This document shows, piece by piece, positions 25,994-58,341 of a stretch of 64,000 nt of DNA. Position numbers and translations under genes: made by a program. Under the pieces are notes generated by a model that saw only the letters and a program-made list of their open reading frames with translations, was not told the DNA's origin and made no database searches. Positions within the stretch are counted from its first letter, which is position 1. Each line of letters starts with the position of its first letter. The stretch is from Deltaproteobacteria bacterium (GTDB lineage: Bacteria > Myxococcota_A > Polyangia > Polyangiales > Houyiibacteriaceae): assembly GCA_034670305.1 (NCBI GenBank), contig JAXMNT010000004.1, positions 128,001-192,000 on the forward strand. The letters run 5' to 3'.

Positions 25994-26412
<419 letters not shown>

Positions 26413-32491: not shown

Positions 32492-32660
32492 CCCTTGCCC
32501 CTGCCCTTGCCCCTGCCCTTGCCCTTCGGATGAAGCGGAGTCGGCATCGGCTTTGGCATCGGGCATCGGGCATCGGGCATCGGGCATCGGCTTCGGCATC
32601 GGCTTCGGCATCGGCTTCGGCTTCGGCTTCGGCTTCGGCATCGGCTTCGGCATCGGCTTC
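32492..32660. repeat. Hexamer/heptamer mosaic tract
   Basis: (GCCC[C/T]T)n, then (GGCATCG)5 at 32555-32589, then (TCGGC[A/T])n. Confidence 0.95.
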
Positions 32661-37579: not shown

Positions 37580-37953
<374 letters not shown>

Positions 37954-39003
37954 TCAGTCGCACAGGTTGGCGAGCGCGCTGGTGTGCCGGCCTTGTGGGT
38001 AGGCGGACACGTAGGAAGCGTGGCTCTCTTGGCAGCCGGCGGTGTCGCCGAGGCGGGCAAGCGCCCTCACGATGCGGGCCATGGCGTCTTCGCGGAAGGG
38101 GGAGGCGCCGGAGCGGAGGGAGCGGCGGAAGGCGCGGACGGCACCGCGGAGGTCGCCGAGATCGTCCATGCGGACGCGGCCGAGTTCGAAGGCGGTGAGG
38201 GGGACGCGGGTGTCGCGGGGATGGCGGCGGAGCAGACGTTCGTACAGGGCCTCTGCTTCGGAGGCCGAGCCGGTGCGGCGGGCTTCGCGGGCGCGTTCGA
38301 AGAGTTCGTCGGCGGTGGGGCGTGCGGCGCGGGCGACCTCGGCGACGGGCTCGGCCTCGCCTTCTTCCGGATCTTCCAGGCCGTCCTGCCCGGGCGCACC
38401 CTGCTGCAGCCCATCCAGCCCACGCAGCGCTTCGACCACGGGTTCTTCCGCCGCCTCTTCTGTCCAGCGCTCGCCTGCGCGCACGCGCTGGACCTGTTCG
38501 CCTCGTCGGACGTCGACGGCTCCCCGTTCAACCGACACCGAGACCGACGCGCCGCGGGTCACGGTGAAGCGGGTGCCGATGACTCGGACTTCCACACCGT
38601 TCGCGAGCACCACGAACGTGCGCGAGGGGTTGCGGGTCACGTCGAAGGTCGCGGCGCCCTCTTCGATTCGGATGCGGGTCTCGTCGCTGCCAACGGGCGC
38701 GTCCTCTCGATGCAGGAGCGAATGGGGCGCGGCCGCGATGGTCGAGCCATCCTCGAGCCGCGCGTGCACCGACGTCTGCTCGGACGCCAGCGTGGTGCCC
38801 GCCCAGTGGGGTTCGGCCGACGGGAGCTGCGACCAGGCCACGACGCCCAGCAGGACCGCGGCCGCCACCGCCAGCCACGCACGCGACCGCATCGGCGTGC
38901 GCTTCGCCTCGAGCTGATCGGCGATGGCCGACCAGTTCTCCTCCACGCGCTCCGGCGAGAGATCCGGTTCGACGAGCGACCGGCGATCGAGCGGCTCGGT
39001 CAT
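37954..39003 (-). CDS. FecR-domain anti-sigma protein with C-terminal TPR
   Basis: TM helix, [29 protein letters not shown]; helical repeat C-terminus. Confidence 0.9.
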
Positions 39004-39578
39004 CGCGCACCTCGTTCGAGCCGCGCGTTCAAGAGCGTGTCGCCATCCTGGATGCGTCGCTTCACCGTCGCGATGGAACGGCCCATCTGCGCCGCGATCT
39101 CCGCGATGCTCAGCCCCTCGACGCGCCGAAGCACGAGTGCGATCCGCACATCGGTCGGGAGCGCATCCAGCAGTCCGTAGAGCGCGCGCAGCTCCAGCCG
39201 CACCTCGGCCGACGCCGTGTTCGACACCAACCGGTCCACGGCGACCGCTTCGGTCGGCAGGAAGAACCGGCGGCGGCGTTGCCGCTTTCGGATCGTGGCC
39301 CGGGCGCAGTTCACGACGATCGTCCCCAGCCACTTCGCGAAGGCCTGTGGGTCGCGCAACGTGTCGAGCCGTTCGTACGCGGTGACGAAGGCGTCTTGCA
39401 CGAGGTCGTCGACGTCGACGCCGCCAAGCAGCCGATGCGCGAGCCCGGTCGCGAGCCCGACGTGCCGGCGGTAGAGGACCTCTTTGGCACGCATGTCGCC
39501 GTCGAGCGCGCGGCGGACCCACGCCCCATCGGGAAGCTCCGCATCGGCCCCTCGGCGCAGTGGTACGACGACACCCAT
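39000..39578 (-). CDS. ECF sigma-70 factor
   Basis: [29 protein letters not shown]. Confidence 0.93.
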
Positions 39579-39690: not shown

Positions 39691-40869
39691 CTACGGGCAC
39701 CGTGCTGCCTGGCCGTAGGCCATGAACCGGATCGGGTGGCTGCCGACGAACGCGTCCGCTTCCGCCCAGTTCGTTCCGTCGCTCGAGCGGTAGAAGACCT
39801 GGTCTTCGTACCAGACCTGCCAGCCCCCACGGACCCCGACGTAGGATCCATCGCCGTACGCCACCGCGCCGAGCGTGATGCCGCCGGGCGACATGTCCGA
39901 CGAGTTCCAAGTCACCCCGTCTGCGCTGCGGTGGACCTGGCCGCGGCTCCACGCGACGAACTCGGTCCCGTTCCACACCAGCTGGGAGGACACCTCGGTG
40001 CCGATCGAAGACTCCACGAAGGTCTGGCCATCGGTGGACGCACAAGCGACACCATCACCCCCGAGGATCAACGTGGTGCCGCCGCCTGCGACGATGCCGC
40101 CGCGGGTCTGGACCGACGCGCCACATGCGCTCGGCATGCTCTCCGCGTGACGCCAGCTCACGCCGAGGTCGTCGCTCAAGACGACGTCGCGCATGCCGCC
40201 GTCTTCGCCGACCATGACGAAGCGCCCGTCCCCGAAGCCCGCGCGGCGCACGTTGAAGACCGAGAGCATGCTCTCGCCGCCCTCGACCCAGGTGTCGCCG
40301 AAGTCGGTCGAGCGGCGGACGTTGCGCGCGGCGGCCAGCACCACACCACCGCCGAAGACCACGTCGCCAAAGGTCGTGTCTGCGAGCGTGCGGGTCCAGC
40401 TCGTGCCCTCGGCAGTCCAGTCGATGCCGCCGGGCGGCCCCCAGCCCCAGGTCGCGACGAACCGTGGGCCGGTCGGTGTGGGCGCAAACGCGATGCCCTT
40501 GGCGGCGCCCGGGTGGTGGTCGCAGTCGTACTCGCCCTCGGCCGGCCAACACACCGCGTCGTCGTCGAGGGAGCGGTTGGCGACCCACGTGCGGCCGCCG
40601 TCGCACGACACCGTGGTGCGCCCGACGTGTCCCTGCGCAACGAAGACGTTGACCGCGCTTGTCTCGCCCGCGTCCTCGCCCCGCGCGTCTTCACCCGCAG
40701 CGTCTTCGGCCGCCACGTCGCTCGCGGGCGCATCGCGTTCAGGACCCGAGTCCACGCTACCCGCATCCACCCGGCCAGCGTCCAGCGGATCGGACGGGTC
40801 GGAGTCACACGCCACCCCAGTGGAGACGAGCGCGCTGGCGGCGATGAGGACAAACAGAGGGCGGGTCAC
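39691..40869 (-). CDS. Lipoprotein with BNR/Asp-box beta-propeller repeats
   Basis: Lipobox GVAC; SCDGGRTW, STDFGDTW, SDDLGVSW, SADGVTW, SSDGTNW; start uncertain. Confidence 0.85.
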   Translation of the reverse strand: MTRPLFVLIAASALVSTGVACDSDPSDPLDAGRVDAGSVDSGPERDAPASDVAAEDAAGEDARGEDAGETSAVNVFVAQGHVGRTTVSCDGGRTWVANRSLDDDAVCWPAEGEYDCDHHPGAAKGIAFAPTPTGPRFVATWGWGPPGGIDWTAEGTSWTRTLADTTFGDVVFGGGVVLAAARNVRRSTDFGDTWVEGGESMLSVFNVRRAGFGDGRFVMVGEDGGMRDVVLSDDLGVSWRHAESMPSACGASVQTRGGIVAGGGTTLILGGDGVACASTDGQTFVESSIGTEVSSQLVWNGTEFVAWSRGQVHRSADGVTWNSSDMSPGGITLGAVAYGDGSYVGVRGGWQVWYEDQVFYRSSDGTNWAEADAFVGSHPIRFMAYGQAARCP

Positions 40870-40938
40870 AAAGGGTAGGAGCGTGACGGGGCAAGAACGG
40901 CTCAAATGATTCGGGAAGCGGAAGCGGAAACGGAAAGA

Positions 40939-40962
40939 GCCGGCGCCCAGGCGGACGCCGGC
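40939..40962 (-). terminator. Intrinsic terminator-like hairpin after four-helix-bundle copy 2
   Basis: Minus strand GCCGGCGTCC-GCCT-GGGCGCCGGC followed by TCTTTCCGTTTCCGCTTCCG. Confidence 0.6.
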
Positions 40963-40968
40963 CTCCGG

Positions 40969-41283
40969 TCAACGGCTTAGCTTGTAGAGCATCGCGCAGA
41001 TATGGTCGCACCGGTCGAGGAGCGCCGGGTCGACGTCGATGTACCCGAAGACCTCTGCGAGCTGCATCGCCGCCTTCAGCTCGCTGCACTCGCCACATGC
41101 AATCGAGAACTTGTCATGACACCGCAGCCCTCGCGCTTGCTTTGCTTCCGCAATGTTGAGGACCACGCTCTGCGCCGCCCGCTGCATCTGAGACGCAAGC
41201 GAAGCGTCGTGCTTGCGAACGCTCGGCAGCACCTGCGCACGCAGCGAACGAACCAGTTCGAAAGAAGTTTGAAGAACGATCAT
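40969..41283 (-). CDS. Four helix bundle protein (23S rRNA IVP/TIGR02436-like)
   Basis: 104 aa; QMQRAAQSVVLNIAE signature, A.GE..E...QLA..GYI, MLYKL. Confidence 0.9.
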   Translation of the reverse strand: MIVLQTSFELVRSLRAQVLPSVRKHDASLASQMQRAAQSVVLNIAEAKQARGLRCHDKFSIACGECSELKAAMQLAEVFGYIDVDPALLDRCDHICAMLYKLSR

Positions 41284-41320
41284 CGGAGACCCCTGAGTGA
41301 AGACGACCGAGCAGTGTGCC

Positions 41321-41430
41321 CGGCGGCCGCAGGCCGCCGTCGCCTGGTGGGTCAGGGGTCAAGGGCGAAGCGACGCGCATCGCGTCGGGCCGAAGGCCCC
41401 CTTGAGGCCTGGCACACCAGGCGACACGCT
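41321..41430 (+). repeat. Structured palindromic element, copy 2
   Basis: CGGCGGCC-GCA-GGCCGCCG hairpin; stem 41339-41356/41408-41425; TCAAGGG/CCCTTGA enclosing GCGAAGC, GACGC-GCATC-GCGTC and GGCC-GAA-GGCC. Confidence 0.85.
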
Positions 41431-41530
41431 TGATCACCTGCCGTGCACAACCCCACCCGCAAAATGGGCACTCGAATCCCCACTCCGAAGGAGAGGATTC
41501 GGCCGACCTCCGAAGGAGGAGGCTACCCGC

Positions 41531-41640
41531 GGTTTCGGTTTCGGTTTCGGTTTCGGTTTCGGTAGCGGAAGCGGAAGCGGAAGCGGAAGCGGAAGCGGAA
41601 GCGGAAGCGGAAGCGGAAGCGGAAGCGGAAGCGGAAGCGG
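41531..41640. repeat. Hexamer tract
   Basis: (GGTTTC)5 GGTAGC (GGAAGC)~12. Confidence 0.95.
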
Positions 41641-41689
41641 AGCAGAACTCTTTTGAGCCGTTTCCGAGTGCCCGGTCTCCTACCCCGCA

Positions 41690-43444
41690 ATGGGACCTGT
41701 GCCACACCTCCGAGCGTTCGTGCTCCTCGGCGTCTCCGTCGGCCTTCTCGGCTGCCAGGGGATCATCGACGAACCGAACTGGATGCCTCCGGACGACGAG
41801 TTCTACGAAGCGGAGGTCGACTTCGAGTGCCCCGCCGACCGAGCCCCCGTCGATGCGCCGCTGCGCCGCTTGAGTCGAACGCAGCTCGAGAACACGGTGC
41901 GCGACACGCTCACCGCGCTGCTCGGCGAAGGCGAGAGCGGGGTGGTCATGAACGAGATCAACCGTGAGCTCGGTGCCATCCCAGGCGACCTGCGCACGAC
42001 CGACTCCGACCAGCAAGAAGGCCAGCTCGCGTTCTACCGGGCAGACCAGTCGGTCGGCGGTTCCGCGGTCGACGCCCACTACGGGCTGAGCCTGCAGCTC
42101 GGCGAAGCACTGACCACGCCCTCCCGACTCGACGCCCTCGGCTCGGGCTGCTTGATGGTCGGCAACTCCGACGGCGCGTGCATCGACGGGTTCATCCGGC
42201 GGGTCGGCGACCTCACCCACCGCCGCCCGATGCAAGAGGACGAGTTCCGCTTCTACCGCGACGAGGTCTACACGGCGGGCGACCTCATCACCCTCGAAGA
42301 CCTGCGCGATGTGGTCACCGTGCTCTTCGCCCAGCCGAACTTCCTCTTTCACGTGGAAGGCACCGGCACCCTGACCGCACACGAAGCCGCCAACCGGTTG
42401 AGCTACCACCTGTGGGACACGATGCCCGACGACGCGCTTCGGGCATCCGCCGCGAGCGGCGATTTGCTGACTTCGGAGGGCTGGCAAGCCGAGGTCACCC
42501 GGGTGCTCGCCGACCCGCGGTCCGAACAAGCGTTCCGCAGCTTCCTCACCGAGTGGCTCCGCTTCGACCACCTCAACACCGCGAGCACCGGCACCGGCGC
42601 CGACTTCGAGGCCATCGCCGGCGACTTGGATCTCGACGCCGAGTTCGACCGCGCCGTCGAAGACGAGCTCGTCGATCTCTTCGCACACGTCGTGCGCACG
42701 GGCGGCACCTTCGAAGACTTCTTCCTCTCCGAGGTGACGCCGACGTCGCACCCGATCCTGGCCGAGTTCTACGGGGTCTCGCCCGCGGCGCCGGGCGAAG
42801 TCGTCGCCGTGCCGCCCGAACGCCGCGGCATCCTCACCCGCGTGGGCCTCTTGCTCTCCCGTGCGGAAGTCGCGCTGCCCACCATCAACTCGATCACCCA
42901 CCCCATCCTGCGCGGCGTGTTCGTCCGCCGGCAAATCACGTGCGACAACCTGCAGGCCGCGCCGGGCGGCGCGATGGACGACTTGCCCGTCGTCGACCGC
43001 TCGGTGGTCGGCTCTCGCGACGCGACCAACCGGCTGACCGGCAGCATCGACTGCAGCGGATGCCACGGCCGCATCAACCCGACCGGCTTCGCGTTCGAAG
43101 GCTTCGACGCCATCGGCCGCGCGCGCACGATGGAGCCGCTCTTCAACGCCGCCGGCGAACAGACCGCGCTGCTGCCCATCGACGCGAGCGCGCAGGTCTT
43201 CGAATCCGAAGACCCCATCACCGGGCCGGTCGAGCTCGGCCAGGTGCTCTTCGATTCCGAGAAACCCGGCGCGTGTTTCACCCGGCACTACGTACGCTTC
43301 GCGCTCGGCCGCACCGAGCGGCTCGAAGAAGACGGGTGTCTGTTGCGCGACATGGACGAAGCCATCGACGACGGACGACCCCTCCGCGAGGTGCTCTCCA
43401 TGGTGATCCTGAACCCCGACTTTCGAGTGCGAGCGGAGAACTGA
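41690..43444 (+). CDS. DUF1592/DUF1588/DUF1595-domain protein
   Basis: LRRLSRTQ, NRLSYHLWDTMPD, RGILT, PILRGVFV, CSGCH; lipobox LLGC. Confidence 0.9.
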   Translation: MGPVPHLRAFVLLGVSVGLLGCQGIIDEPNWMPPDDEFYEAEVDFECPADRAPVDAPLRRLSRTQLENTVRDTLTALLGEGESGVVMNEINRELGAIPGDLRTTDSDQQEGQLAFYRADQSVGGSAVDAHYGLSLQLGEALTTPSRLDALGSGCLMVGNSDGACIDGFIRRVGDLTHRRPMQEDEFRFYRDEVYTAGDLITLEDLRDVVTVLFAQPNFLFHVEGTGTLTAHEAANRLSYHLWDTMPDDALRASAASGDLLTSEGWQAEVTRVLADPRSEQAFRSFLTEWLRFDHLNTASTGTGADFEAIAGDLDLDAEFDRAVEDELVDLFAHVVRTGGTFEDFFLSEVTPTSHPILAEFYGVSPAAPGEVVAVPPERRGILTRVGLLLSRAEVALPTINSITHPILRGVFVRRQITCDNLQAAPGGAMDDLPVVDRSVVGSRDATNRLTGSIDCSGCHGRINPTGFAFEGFDAIGRARTMEPLFNAAGEQTALLPIDASAQVFESEDPITGPVELGQVLFDSEKPGACFTRHYVRFALGRTERLEEDGCLLRDMDEAIDDGRPLREVLSMVILNPDFRVRAEN

Positions 43445-43446
43445 CG

Positions 43447-44994
43447 ATGACGGTACGCAAGTTTGGACGACGCTGGATGCTGCTTGGTGGCGGCGCCTCT
43501 CTCATGATCCCCGCATTGCCCAGTCTGCTCCGCGGCACGAAGACCGCCGCGCAGGACGGTGCGCTGCCGCGCCGCATGGTGGCCATCGTCACGGAACACG
43601 GCGGCGTGTGGCAGGACGACTTCTACCCGGCCGAATCGCTCGCTTCGACGCCCTTCGCGCACCCGCTGCATCCGTGCCACCAGGGCGCGCTGACGTCGAT
43701 GGTGGCGGGCAGCGACCGCGTCATGTCGCCGACCCTTCGTGCACCGAGCGGCCTCTTCACCGAGAGCATCGCCTCGAAGATGAACGTGCTGCGCGGGCTC
43801 GACGTGCCGTTCTACTACGGGCACGGGCGCCACTCGCTCGGCAACTACGGGGACATGTCGAACAACCACGACGAGTTCCCGGACGACCAGCAGACGGCCG
43901 ACCAGATCATGGCGTACTCACCGGCGGTCTACGAGACCACGCCGCGTCGCCGGACCATGTACTTCGGATCCGAGGCGCTCAGCGTCGAACTCCGCGACCG
44001 CACGCTCGGCCCGTCCGGTGGGTTTCAGCCGGTCGAAGAAGTCGGCGCGCAGACCATCTTCGATTCCATCTACGTCGAGACCACCACCGAGCCGCCCCGC
44101 CCCTCGCCGATCAACGCGGTCTACGAGAGCTACGCGCGGCTCGAGTCCGGCCGCTTCGGCGCGGGTGCGCGCCTCGGTCGGGCCGACCGCCAGCGACTCA
44201 CCCAATACATGGATCGACTCAGCGACATCCGCGCCTCGTTGATGGCCGGAGTCGGCGCGTCCTGCAGCGACGTGACGCCCATCGCCGGGCTGCCCGACCG
44301 TTGGTCGCGCTACGGACGAGACACGTACGCCTTGATCAACGACGTCGTCGTGGCGGGCTTCATGTGCGACAGCAGCCGCATCGCCATCATCCGCGTCAAC
44401 GACGCATTCAACGACGCCATCGACGCGTACCCCGGCGGCTACCACGAGGTCGCGCACAACGGCGCGGGCACCGACACCAGCATGGTGGAACCCGCGGTGC
44501 TCGAGAACCTCGGCGCCATGCTGCGCGACGGCGGCCGCAACTTCTTCGCCGGCGCCTACCTCGACCTGGTGTCGAAGCTCGACGGCATCTCCGAGGGCGA
44601 CGGCACCATGCTCGACAACAGCCTCGTCTGGTGGACCCAAGAAGCCGGCTCCTCGACGCACAACGGAGACTCGATCCCCATCGTCACCGCGGGCGGCGCC
44701 GGCGACCGGCTCAACACCGGCCTCTACCTCGACTTCCGCAACCGCCCCGAGATGCGCTTCAGCGCCGAGCAGCACATCTACGCCAACGAAGGCCGCCGCC
44801 CCGGCGCGTGTTTCTTCCAGTGGACCACCACCTACCTCGACGCCTTCGGCGTCGGCCGCGAAGAGTGGCAAACCGCCGACCGCCGCGCCTTCAGCGCCAT
44901 GGGCCCCAACCACACCTGGATGCGCATGCAGTACGACCAGTCCGCCATGGACGCGAGCTGCGACGACCCCCTGCCCCACCTGATGCGTACATAA
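43447..44994 (+). CDS. DUF1552-domain protein (Tat-like signal)
   Basis: GRRWML.G.G...LP.L N-terminus, TMLDNSLV, H-x-G-D; typical partner of DUF1592. Confidence 0.85.
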
Positions 44995-45024
44995 GAGCGC
45001 CGCGCCGGAGCTGCCTCCGAATTT

Positions 45025-45096
45025 GGCCGAAGGCCTCCTTGAGGCGCCACCCCGCCGACCGCCTACGAGAAGGGGCGCAGACTGGAGGATGAGGTT
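45025..45096 (+). repeat. Truncated copy 3 of the structured element
   Basis: GGCCGAAGGCCTCCTTGAGGCGCC as at 518-541; 45065-45096 matches 589-620 at 30/32 nt. Confidence 0.9.
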
Positions 45097-45262
45097 CGGC
45101 TTCGGCGTTCGGATTCGGATTCGGCATCGGATTCGGCATCGGATTCGGCATCGGCATCGGCTTCGGCTTCGGCTTCGGCGTCGGCGTCGGCTTCGGCGTC
45201 GGCTTCTTCGTCGGCTTCTTCGTCGGCTTCGGCGTCGGCTTCTTCGTCGGCTTCGGCGTCGG
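45095..45262. repeat. Hexamer mosaic tract
   Basis: (TTCGGA/ATCGGC/TTCGGC/GTCGGC)n and 12-mer TCGGCTTCTTCG. Confidence 0.95.
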
Positions 45263-45310
45263 CGCCGCCCTCGCCCTCGCCGTCGCCAGTCGACCTCCCC
45301 CTCCGCGCCT

Positions 45311-56981: not shown

Positions 56982-57071
56982 GGGCTGCTGAAAGAGAAGT
57001 GAACTGGGGAAGCGCCCGGGACCGGAGACGGTCTCGGGCGTTTTCTCGTTGGGCGTTCCTCGCGAGCGGCC

Positions 57072-57429
57072 CGTGCCCCGTGTGCCCGTGCCCCGTGCTT
57101 CCGACGCCGAAGCCGATGCCGATGCCGATGCCGATGCCGATGCCGATGCCGAAGCCGAGGCCGAGGCCGAGGCCGATGCCGAATCCGACGCCGAATCCGA
57201 ATCCGACGCCGAATCCGAATCCGAATCCGAATCCGAATCCGAATCCCGCTACCGCTGCCGCTGCCGCTGCCGCTGCCGCTGCCGCTGCCGCTGCCGCTGC
57301 CGCTGCCGCTGCCGCTGCCGCTGCAGCTGTCTCTGTCTCTGTCTCTGTCTCTGTCTCTGTCTCTGCCGCTGCCGCCCGCCGCTGCCGCCCGCCGCTGCTG
57401 CCGCTGCCGCTGCCGCTGCCGCTGCCGCT
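57072..57429. repeat. Hexamer mosaic tract
   Basis: GTGCCCC 7-mers, (GCCGAT/GCCGAG/TCCGAA)n, (GCCGCT)n, (GTCTCT)n, (GCCGCT)n. Confidence 0.95.
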
Positions 57430-57432
57430 CTC

Positions 57433-58341
57433 CTACCTGGTTGCGGTGATCGCTTGGCGGAGGCGGGCGAGCGGGGCGGTGTCGTGCAGTCGGATTCCGT
57501 CGTCCGTCTCCACGACGCCGAGGCGGCCGAAGAAGGCGTCGAGGTCGACGGTGCCGCGTTGGGCGGCCATCTCGGCGTACAGGTCGGAGAGCACGGTCGT
57601 GCCGCTCAGCTCGTCGGCGACGCGGACGACTTCGGCGGTGGTCCAGCGGACGCGGGCGTTGCCGCCGCGGGCGAGGATGCCTTGCACGATCGACTGGACG
57701 CTGGCGCGGCCGCGGGTGGCCGACCGCAGACGGACGTCGGCGACCATCCAGAAGAGTGCGCCGCCCCAGTAGAGGGCGCCCCAGCTGCGGGTGTGGTCGA
57801 GGCCGCGGTCGCGGCGGCCCGGCAGGCCGTTGGGCATCTTCTGAACGAAGCGCTCCCACACCCGCTCTTCGGTGATTCTGTTCTCGCGCGCGAGCATGAT
57901 CGACTCGAGGTAGGTCGACAGGCCTTCGCGCATCCACCGGTGCCGGTTGGCGAGCATCGGGAACGCGACGTGCGCCATCTCGTGGCGCAGCACCCAGTCG
58001 CGCGCCAGCTGCTCGTCGGTCGTGTTGCGGCCGACGCGAACACGCACGCGGCGGCCGCGAAAGTGCTGTCCGAACCCGACCCGCGATCCGGAGTTCACGT
58101 TGAGCTCCACCTGCAGCGTGCGCACCGGGTATCGGCCGAAGTAGGTCGCGATGGTCTCCGCCGACTCCCGCACCCAAGTCAGCAAACGCCTGCGCTCCGA
58201 GCGGTCGACCCCGCCTTCGAACGACACCTCGAGCCGAGCCCCCGCCACCCTCAGCGTGGTCGGCCGGGATTGGGACTGCGCGTCCGCGCGCTCCGGTGCT
58301 GGTCCAGCGAGAAGGAGAAGGGCCAGGAGGGTCGTACGCAC
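57433..58341 (-). CDS. Secreted gluzincin-like metallopeptidase
   Basis: Signal peptide; HEMAH...[13 protein letters not shown]. Confidence 0.8.

Follow-up and report, generated by a model that had tools for sequence, protein, structure and literature searches.

A multi-copy cassette of Polyangiales-type myxobacteria couples a PF05635 four-helix-bundle gene to a covarying leader fold and subfamily-specific hexanucleotide tracts

Introduction

What might a lone 104-amino-acid gene of the PF05635/TIGR02436 family be doing between a structured leader and arrays of hexanucleotide repeats, and do these parts belong together at all? The question is raised by positions 40913-41641 of a 64,000-nucleotide stretch of contig JAXMNT010000004.1 from a Deltaproteobacteria bacterium (hereafter, the window). 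An initial annotation of this locus had proposed a dispersed unit in which the protein binds the repeat or the structured nucleic acid, possibly seeding or controlling the many orphan tracts together with an enzyme encoded elsewhere. The reading best supported by our analysis is that the locus belongs to a conserved cassette of about 0.6 kb that exists in many copies in Polyangiales-type myxobacteria, and that gene, fold and repeat are inherited and constrained together. The cassette is apparently undescribed; the protein family and its four-helix-bundle fold are already known.

To our knowledge, PF05635 proteins have had no function assigned to them since their discovery in the intervening sequences (IVS) of 23S rRNA, and the only studied relative is Avd, the accessory protein of diversity-generating retroelements (DGRs). 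Our search of the literature on PF05635/TIGR02436 proteins, on S23, IVS and Avd, and on myxobacterial hexanucleotide repeats, which did not cover supplements, returned no description of the cassette. For the IVS of Coxiella burnetii 23S rRNA, excerpts of one account describe a very small element with stable stems whose sole gene belongs to the S23p/PF05635 family; the element is called selfish there, its benefit unknown, and it is set in a context of reductive evolution, with no protein in vivo (Warrier et al., 2016; PMC4990558).

Results

The cassette is dispersed through the genome of origin

The assembly that contains the window (G000) comprises 7.93 Mb in 105 contigs at 68% G+C; because metagenome assemblies break at repeats, the copy numbers given here are lower bounds. 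PF05635 has 48 matches in this genome at E <= 0.01, with 39 above the family cut-off, and these fall by eye into four subfamilies: A (9 members, including the gene at 40969-41283), B (14), C (14, including a copy at 86-390) and D (11). Both this assignment and the tract detector used below are our own, and copies that are kin are not independent of each other. A covariance model of the fold (R1) recovered 38 leader copies, and a PF05635 match lies on the same strand within 250 nt downstream of 32 of the 37 leaders that could be evaluated.

Read in the orientation of the gene, the cassette runs from a period-6 tract of variable length through one to three small hairpins, a conserved block of about 35 nt, a multi-stem fold with an adjoining hairpin (together about 105 nt) and a ribosome-binding stretch to the gene of 103-104 codons, which is followed by a terminator hairpin and frequently by another tract. 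Similarity among the copies of subfamilies A to C spans about -560 to +50 bp relative to the stop codon and is bounded by tracts, followed by unique DNA. Five gene-less or truncated copies retain tract and leader, and in one of them the fold joins the terminator directly. Two short signatures are distributed in the same way: in this genome, 17 of the 18 copies of a TAGCC-plus-hairpin motif lie no more than 700 bp from a family gene, and 18 of the 19 copies of a leader motif are likewise close to one. With 38 leaders and 48 family matches, the dispersed unit of the initial annotation is borne out. Neighbouring genes are mixed in orientation, as judged with a crude filter of open reading frames (ORFs), and this was not used as evidence. 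The sequencing runs listed for the locus include no RNA run; metagenome contigs aligned to the locus break at the cassette and at the tracts, and their joints derive from paralogues.

The genes of subfamily D are enclosed by an element whose ends, like its hexamer arrays, are inverted. Outside the cassette itself, we observed a high-copy element end (for example at C14:16226 and C1:99) that consists of a hairpin and, after it, some five CCCKTG hexamers. This left end is present in 119 oriented copies, 66 of which lie within 400 bp of a contig end, and the element therefore breaks the assembly. A right end that matches it in inverted orientation has 37 copies, and between the two ends lie the subfamily-D PF05635 genes, mostly broken; the flanks read TA or CTAG.

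The leader fold is supported by covariation

The same architecture recurs in the leaders of subfamilies A, B and C, where a long outer and an inner helix come with two or three internal hairpins, an unpaired GCUUCGC and a further hairpin. At the window locus, the stability of the fold corresponds to a z-score of -3.19 as sense RNA and of -4.62 as + strand DNA (0 of 200 shuffles as good). In an alignment of 38 distinct sequences from G000 and from G012, a one-contig genome of another genus, both sides have changed in 8 pairs of a 15-pair helix; doubly changed cells in this helix number 81, where shuffles give 31.8 +/- 3.8 and none of 500 reaches 81, and sliding the partners lowers the covariation score from 0.306 to 0.05-0.13. 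The covariation that had been claimed for this palindrome is supported, and its fixed place and orientation before the start codon fit a 5' leader. Rfam searches of the window and of seven cassette loci gave no gathering-level match to the fold, the only row being a weak one (E 4.7).

Some leaders are interrupted by hairpin-forming insertions of about 70-90 nt, seen in subfamily B (L017 and L023) and subfamily C (C19:96076) of G000 as well as in G012 (L072, L076, L077 and L102). The insertions differ between the two genomes and resemble hitch-hikers of the type of miniature inverted-repeat transposable elements (MITEs).

Each subfamily carries its own hexanucleotide tract

Period-6 tracts make up 1.36% of the bases of G000 (1520 segments, merged into 755 loci) and are mostly intergenic; with the same detector, no segments were found at period 5 and 8 at period 7. 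A tract lies within 300 nt upstream of 29 of the 37 leaders under strict settings, or 34 of 37 under relaxed ones, compared to 4.2% and 5.4%, respectively, of random 300-nt windows, an enrichment that agrees with the unit first proposed. Upstream of the gene, and in its orientation, the hexamer is of CCGCTT-type in subfamily A, CAGCRR-type in B and GCCGAN-type in C; genome-wide, CCGCTT accounts for 6.8% of the tract segments and AGCGGC for 2.7%. Tracts are inherited as part of the cassette, and their hexamer type is particular to each protein subfamily. Since the copies are related by descent, the association of subfamily and hexamer is no set of independent events.

Thirteen cassettes have tracts on both sides, which are direct in seven, weakly inverted in one and composed of unlike repeats in five; in subfamilies A and C, all five copies that could be classified have the same hexamer in the same orientation on the two sides. 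The gene thus lies between short-unit tandem arrays with a unit specific to the protein branch, and the arrays are direct, not mirror-image. The terminator of subfamily B passes with its 3' arm straight into the downstream repeat, a junction that looks like seeding by slippage.

Of 1484 tract flanks, 1265 are unique sequence without a cassette remnant. Clustering of the flanks, aimed at other repeated units beside orphan tracts, yielded only three clusters of at least three flanks, the largest of which (172 flanks) owed its cohesion to residual repeats. Of the 1520 segments, 1427 belong to hexamer classes that the four subfamilies use, the classes having been drawn after the data were seen.

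Cassettes with tracts and leaders are found in other genera

We compared 31 genomes, namely G000 and 30 relatives from the same family and order. PF05635 matches are present in 22 of them, with up to 31 in a relative. In G012, a tract lies within 700 bp upstream of 23 of the 27 listed family genes, mostly at a distance of 220-315 bp. Tracts are otherwise rare in this genome: 400 kb of evenly spaced control DNA held 6 tract loci covering 0.13% of its bases, and 2.2% of random sites have a tract in the 700 bp to either side. The three main G012 subfamilies keep their own hexamers (GTCTCA-type in 9/9, GCCGAW in 6/6 and GCCGAW-type in 9/11), and their leaders are homologous to those of G000, with compensating changes in the inner helix. 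Tracts that are specific to a subfamily, fixed in distance and conserved in a second genus where they are otherwise rare are part of the unit, as the initial annotation had supposed.

Family genes are also flanked by tracts at 3 of 4 loci retrieved from G002 and at the one retrieved from G030, while the one retrieved from G008 has none and G013 has repeats of about 19-20 bases instead of period-6 tracts. A cross-genus covariance model (R2) run on the 31 genomes matched 38 sites in G000, 25 in G012, 5 in G013, 6 in G027 and one each in G005 and G015, which takes the leader to three further genera; those matches in G013, G027 and G015 that could be assigned to listed genes precede them on the same strand by about 110-150 nt. 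Model R1 gave nothing convincing in the 30 relatives, which is a miss of that model, since R2 and reading by eye found the G012 leaders. The gene next to the window locus, of family DUF1592, has its best-matching locus in another genus (L125), where neither a tract nor a leader lies upstream; the upstream neighbour is a different one there as well, so that this is no clean empty site.

Several arrangements in the relatives stand on their own. In G012, G002, G013 and G030, family genes often form convergent pairs, 45-140 bp apart, with a common terminator region and a tract outside each gene. In G030, a long near-perfect palindrome precedes each gene in place of the multi-stem fold. Three sites in the G012 control DNA (L104:12245, L119:7957 and L122:5566) belong to a second repeated unit without an IVS-type protein, about 300 nt long and with a shared left flank, that ends in a CCGAAC-type tract; tracts may therefore also attach to other families of units.

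Genes and leaders are old and under purifying selection

Selection was estimated on 32 intact genes (8 of subfamily A, 13 of B and 11 of C); one further, seemingly intact C copy was left out by the start-codon pattern. Mean synonymous divergence (dS) is 0.53 in A, 0.45 in B and 0.59 in C, and the ratio of nonsynonymous to synonymous divergence (dN/dS) is 0.093, 0.134 and 0.054, respectively. Leaders are 0.88-0.91 identical, against 0.69-0.75 at third codon positions. Gene and fold are both under purifying selection. Old copies, each kept by selection and with a fold that is constrained too, weigh against a purely selfish element that spread in a recent burst.

The protein is a four-helix bundle of the IVS-protein type

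The product of the 104-codon gene scores 56.8 bits against PF05635 (cut-off 33.8) and 59.7 bits against TIGR02436 (cut-off 24). Its AlphaFold2 model (pLDDT 94.6) has four helices, and the folds ranked best by Foldseek are 2gsc and 2rld, with template modelling (TM) scores of 0.83-0.85 at 22-30% identity; 2gsc is also the best sequence match among solved structures (E 3.1e-5). Both entries, XCC0516 (2gsc) and BT_0352 (2rld, 'S23 ribosomal protein family'), are PF05635 proteins to which the depositors gave no function, and their titles carry no cassette context. Avd (8ub7_E and 4dwl_D) has the same four-helix-bundle fold and ranked below the IVS-protein structures, with TM scores of 0.71-0.73 and 10-14% identity. 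PADLOC-DB returned 0 families at E <= 0.01, and searches of plasmids and phages gave no protein match.

Organization of the locus and of its relatives in the window

Every feature that the initial annotation had listed between 40913 and 41641 was found in its place, except the putative promoter. The gene is intact, belongs to subfamily A and occupies 40969-41283 on the - strand. Downstream of it, an intrinsic-terminator-like hairpin of 11 pairs (9 of them G-C) with a T-rich tail (40938-40963, - strand) is kept in 9 of 9 subfamily-A rows of the alignment, and directly after it follows, as read from the sequence, a mini-tract of four GGAAGC-like units on the + strand (40913-40937), which is CCGCTT-type in gene orientation. 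Hexamer type and orientation of the mini-tract are those of the upstream tract, and sister copies have longer tracts at this place.

Upstream, and likewise on the - strand, the ATG is preceded by a spacer (41284-41320) with a purine-rich ribosome-binding stretch that is near-invariant across 8 subfamily-A leaders. The leader begins, at the end nearest the gene, with an 8-pair hairpin (41321-41339), followed by the multi-stem element described initially as a multibranch palindrome (41340-41424), which consists of the long outer helix, an inner helix (in sense, CCUCAAGGG / CCCUUGA) and two internal hairpins; the R1 match covers 41321-41424 and the R2 match 41352-41412. Between the fold and the small hairpins lies a conserved block that is a candidate promoter region (41425-41470, - strand); it is conserved within subfamilies, and a similar block was seen by eye in G012. 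The two small hairpins (41483-41493 and 41507-41519, - strand) have GAA loops on the + strand, and next to them stands GGCTAC (41521-41526; assigned to the - strand, GTAGCC in gene orientation). The upstream tract (41530-41641) combines 5.7 units of CGGTTT at 41530-41563 with 13.7 units of CGGAAG at 41560-41641, CCGCTT-type in gene orientation; it is of the subfamily-A type found in 7 of 7 tract-bearing A copies. The closest named records to a neighbouring gene come from metagenome-assembled genomes labelled Polyangiales or Myxococcota, at 55-68% identity.

A second cassette lies near the start of the window, where the initial annotation had noted the same order of parts at 53-996. The order does recur; the gene, however, is broken. 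This subfamily-C copy (86-390, - strand) has deletions of 8 and 3 bases when aligned to 13 sisters, its PF05635 match (86-346) of 28.6 bits is under the cut-off, and it is 56% identical to the intact 104-residue protein over 88 amino acids. Its leader (428-554, - strand) is matched by R1 with 64.8 bits and by R2 at 459-542, and its tract array (643-1003) is of GCCGAN-type in gene orientation, followed by GCACCA units. A gene-less subfamily-C remnant (44960-45263, - strand), one of the five reduced copies, consists of a tract (45095-45263) and a leader cut past its first internal hairpin, with a match to the core motif near 45027.

Orphan tract arrays elsewhere in the window (26000-26412, 32492-32657 and 57069-57434) are composite and polar, with a short CCCKTG or GCCCGT mini-array capping longer GCCGAN or CAGCGA arrays; an order of GTGCCC units followed by GCCGAW units was also seen beside G012 cassettes (L075 and L079). 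Long ORFs laid over tracts, such as 37744-39180 on the + strand, are spurious frames of dipeptide repeats (PT, PL, EA or GF), and ORF lists show such tract-made frames as 'proteins' of 250-480 amino acids.

Genes for reverse transcriptases and HUH enzymes

The initial annotation had pointed to a reverse transcriptase (RT) or HUH enzyme encoded elsewhere as a possible partner of the protein, and neither could be linked to the cassette. Only three RT matches exist in G000, none adjoining a cassette and the nearest about 5 kb from a copy on contig C67, and two genomes rich in family genes (G015 with 10 and G026 with 9) lack an RT match at E <= 1e-5. Co-distribution of RT-family and PF05635 genes is weak, with genome size as a confounder. 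The 11 Y1 HUH genes of G000 belong to an unrelated element that has its own long inverted ends; these ends are unrelated to the cassette hairpins, and the kinship of hairpin and element end that marks repetitive extragenic palindromic (REP) sequences and REP-associated tyrosine transposases (RAYTs) is therefore not seen here.

The RT genes themselves (C23:86418-87011, C10:168437-169069 and C67:18832-19467) are frames of 437-559 amino acids with long N-terminal extensions and, by eye, retron-like motifs. The Y1 genes (PF01797, about 235 amino acids; for example C20:45721-46002 and C31:83470-83760) have inverted ends of about 50 nt that are common to the copies, and are similar to insertion sequences; one copy abuts and truncates a subfamily-A copy at C15:123159. 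Among the relatives, G004 has a high-scoring PF05635 gene (111.5 bits) that shares its strand with an RT gene 1.3 kb away (C48:23970-26180); the two probably make up a true DGR with Avd and RT and are not one of the cassettes.

Discussion

The cassette resembles several known systems in part. Similar to the ORF-bearing IVS, as pictured in the excerpts of the Coxiella account, it is a very small element whose only gene comes from the S23p/PF05635 family and stands beside stable stems. In contrast to IVS, it lies outside rRNA (by Rfam, the window contains two tRNAs only and the seven cassette loci nothing), no stem encloses the ORF, the fold is self-contained and upstream, and the flanking repeats are direct rather than complementary; the genes are intact and constrained, unlike that of Coxiella in the same excerpts. 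The tracts are like bacterial hexanucleotide microsatellites in their head-to-tail 6-base units, variant units, variable length and mostly intergenic position, while differing from them in being fixed in a gene cassette at a set distance, tied in their unit to a protein subfamily and kept across genera. REP sequences and bacterial interspersed mosaic elements with RAYTs, as well as MITEs, are short intergenic hairpin-forming repeats that occur in many copies. The cassette has a GTAG-like head before its hairpin as REP sequences do; unlike REP/RAYT systems and MITEs, subfamilies A to C carry a constrained protein gene, and neither terminal inverted repeats nor target duplications were seen. Avd acts bound to nucleic acid and an enzyme within a ribonucleoprotein; the setting of a DGR is absent here, as the cassette has no adjacent RT, template repeat or variable repeat and occurs in tens of copies per genome.

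What, then, could the protein do? We favour the reading that the small protein recognises the nucleic acid of its own cassette, be it the fold, the repeat or both, and thereby controls its own expression or upkeep, and we put the probability of this at roughly 0.5. Binding of the protein to repeat or fold is plausible and would be the most economical reading of subfamily-specific repeats. The protein would bind the folded element with its invariant unpaired GCUUCGC, the cognate repeat array, or both, and binding would control expression or maintenance of the cassette. The tracts would be slippage-prone repeats seeded from the cassette ends that persist as part of the recognition unit, and new copies might arise by rare duplication into intergenic DNA, for which no dedicated enzyme would be needed.

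Several observations weigh against this reading. Given that the copies are kin, the subfamily-specific hexamers could reflect simple descent. Subfamily D has no such leader, and subfamily B has CGGCTT as its downstream hexamer, so the repeats differ on its two sides. Only 56 of the 755 tract loci of G000 lie within 700 bp of a cassette, leaving 699 with none nearby, and tracts can therefore exist in this genome without an adjacent protein gene. A scan of 40850-41750 on both strands returned 0 sigma-70 sites, and the divergent promoter of the initial annotation was accordingly not confirmed; inspection by eye, for which no tool scan was run, brought up no convincing sigma-54 or extracytoplasmic function (ECF) pattern. 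The strand of the fold is also in question. Counted over the union of pairs from both strands, wobble pairs come to 79 versus 79 by construction, and we therefore used the intersection set: among pairs predicted on both strands, 17 A.C cells on the gene strand, which are G.U on the other strand, stand against 2 G.U cells on the gene strand. Read on that other strand, the loop of the first hairpin is GAA in 24, GCA in 6, GTA in 1 and GGA in 1 of the leaders matched by pattern (32 of 35). In DNA, hairpins with a G-N-A triloop on a C-G closing pair have unusual stability. Wobble asymmetry and G-N-A loops together point to the strand opposite the gene as the one that folds, possibly as DNA.

Three other explanations deserve consideration. 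The cassette could, as the main rival reading has it, be a slowly spreading selfish insertion, kin of the ORF-bearing rRNA IVS, that is copied into tract-bearing intergenic DNA, with the protein serving its spread and the tracts as landing sites or scars. Dispersed copies with sharp limits and unique flanks fit this view, as do the five gene-less or truncated copies that keep tract and leader, and the equal, same-orientation hexamers on both sides of all five classifiable A and C copies are what one would expect if a copy had inserted into a like tract or recombined with one. The inverted-end element around subfamily D, with 66 of its 119 left ends at contig ends, also speaks for it, and so does the bare DUF1592 locus of L125, weakened by the difference in the upstream neighbour. 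A recent burst followed by decay would, however, hardly leave copies as old as these (dS 0.45-0.59) with 32 intact genes at a dN/dS of 0.05-0.13; moreover, subfamilies A to C showed neither a transposase nor an integrase nor a target duplication, and plasmids and phages gave no match. We consider a selfish cassette of this kind possible, if rather doubtful. The proposal that an RT or HUH enzyme encoded elsewhere acts with the protein on a single-stranded copy of the fold, and so seeds or controls the orphan tracts, can draw on the joint travel of tracts and cassettes, on the share of segments in the subfamily hexamer classes (post hoc as these are), on the strand signals just described and on the kinship in fold to Avd, an RT partner. 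Against it stand the three RT genes, which are not beside cassettes and are retron-type by eye, the two RT-free genomes (G015 and G026), the confinement of the Y1 genes to an unrelated element and the preponderance of unique tract flanks. In addition, G012 holds at least 25 cassettes with tracts, yet tracts make up 0.13% of its control DNA; cassettes alone therefore do not flood a genome with tracts. The seeding of orphan tracts, as initially suggested, thus did not gain support, and we regard the involvement of such an enzyme as very unlikely.

We take an equally dim view of the idea that the fold is an ordinary cis-regulatory 5' UTR (untranslated region) leader sensing a ligand or another factor, with the tracts as neutral, hitch-hiking microsatellites. 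While the fixed position and orientation of the fold before the start codon, the conserved ribosome-binding stretch and the richness of G000 in microsatellites are what it would predict, tracts stand at a fixed distance upstream of 23 of 27 genes in G012, where they are otherwise rare, and hexamer types are kept per subfamily at a dS of about 0.5, by which a neutral microsatellite should have decayed or vanished; nor does the fold match an Rfam family.

Recognition by the protein of its own cassette, the reading we prefer, may also be taken further. The proteins might be sequence-specific binders of their own hexamer array and fold, the fold might act as single-stranded DNA or antisense RNA opposite the gene, and the cassette might be a self-maintaining, satellite-seeding unit that, intact or as decayed remains, is the source of the 755 tract loci. 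We hold this extended version to be unlikely. If true, it would provide the first function for the 30-year-old family of rRNA-IVS and Avd-like proteins, namely protein-guided birth and upkeep of microsatellites.

For the PF05635 family, the cassettes described here provide tens of constrained copies per genome, each tied to a conserved fold and a subfamily-specific repeat, and the question of function therefore becomes directly testable, for instance with protein A against fold A or a CCGCTT array, and protein C against GCCGAN. The leader adds an apparently undescribed structured-element candidate with covariation across two genera, and the cassette as a whole offers a concrete lead for explaining the abundance of hexanucleotide satellites in some myxobacterial genomes.

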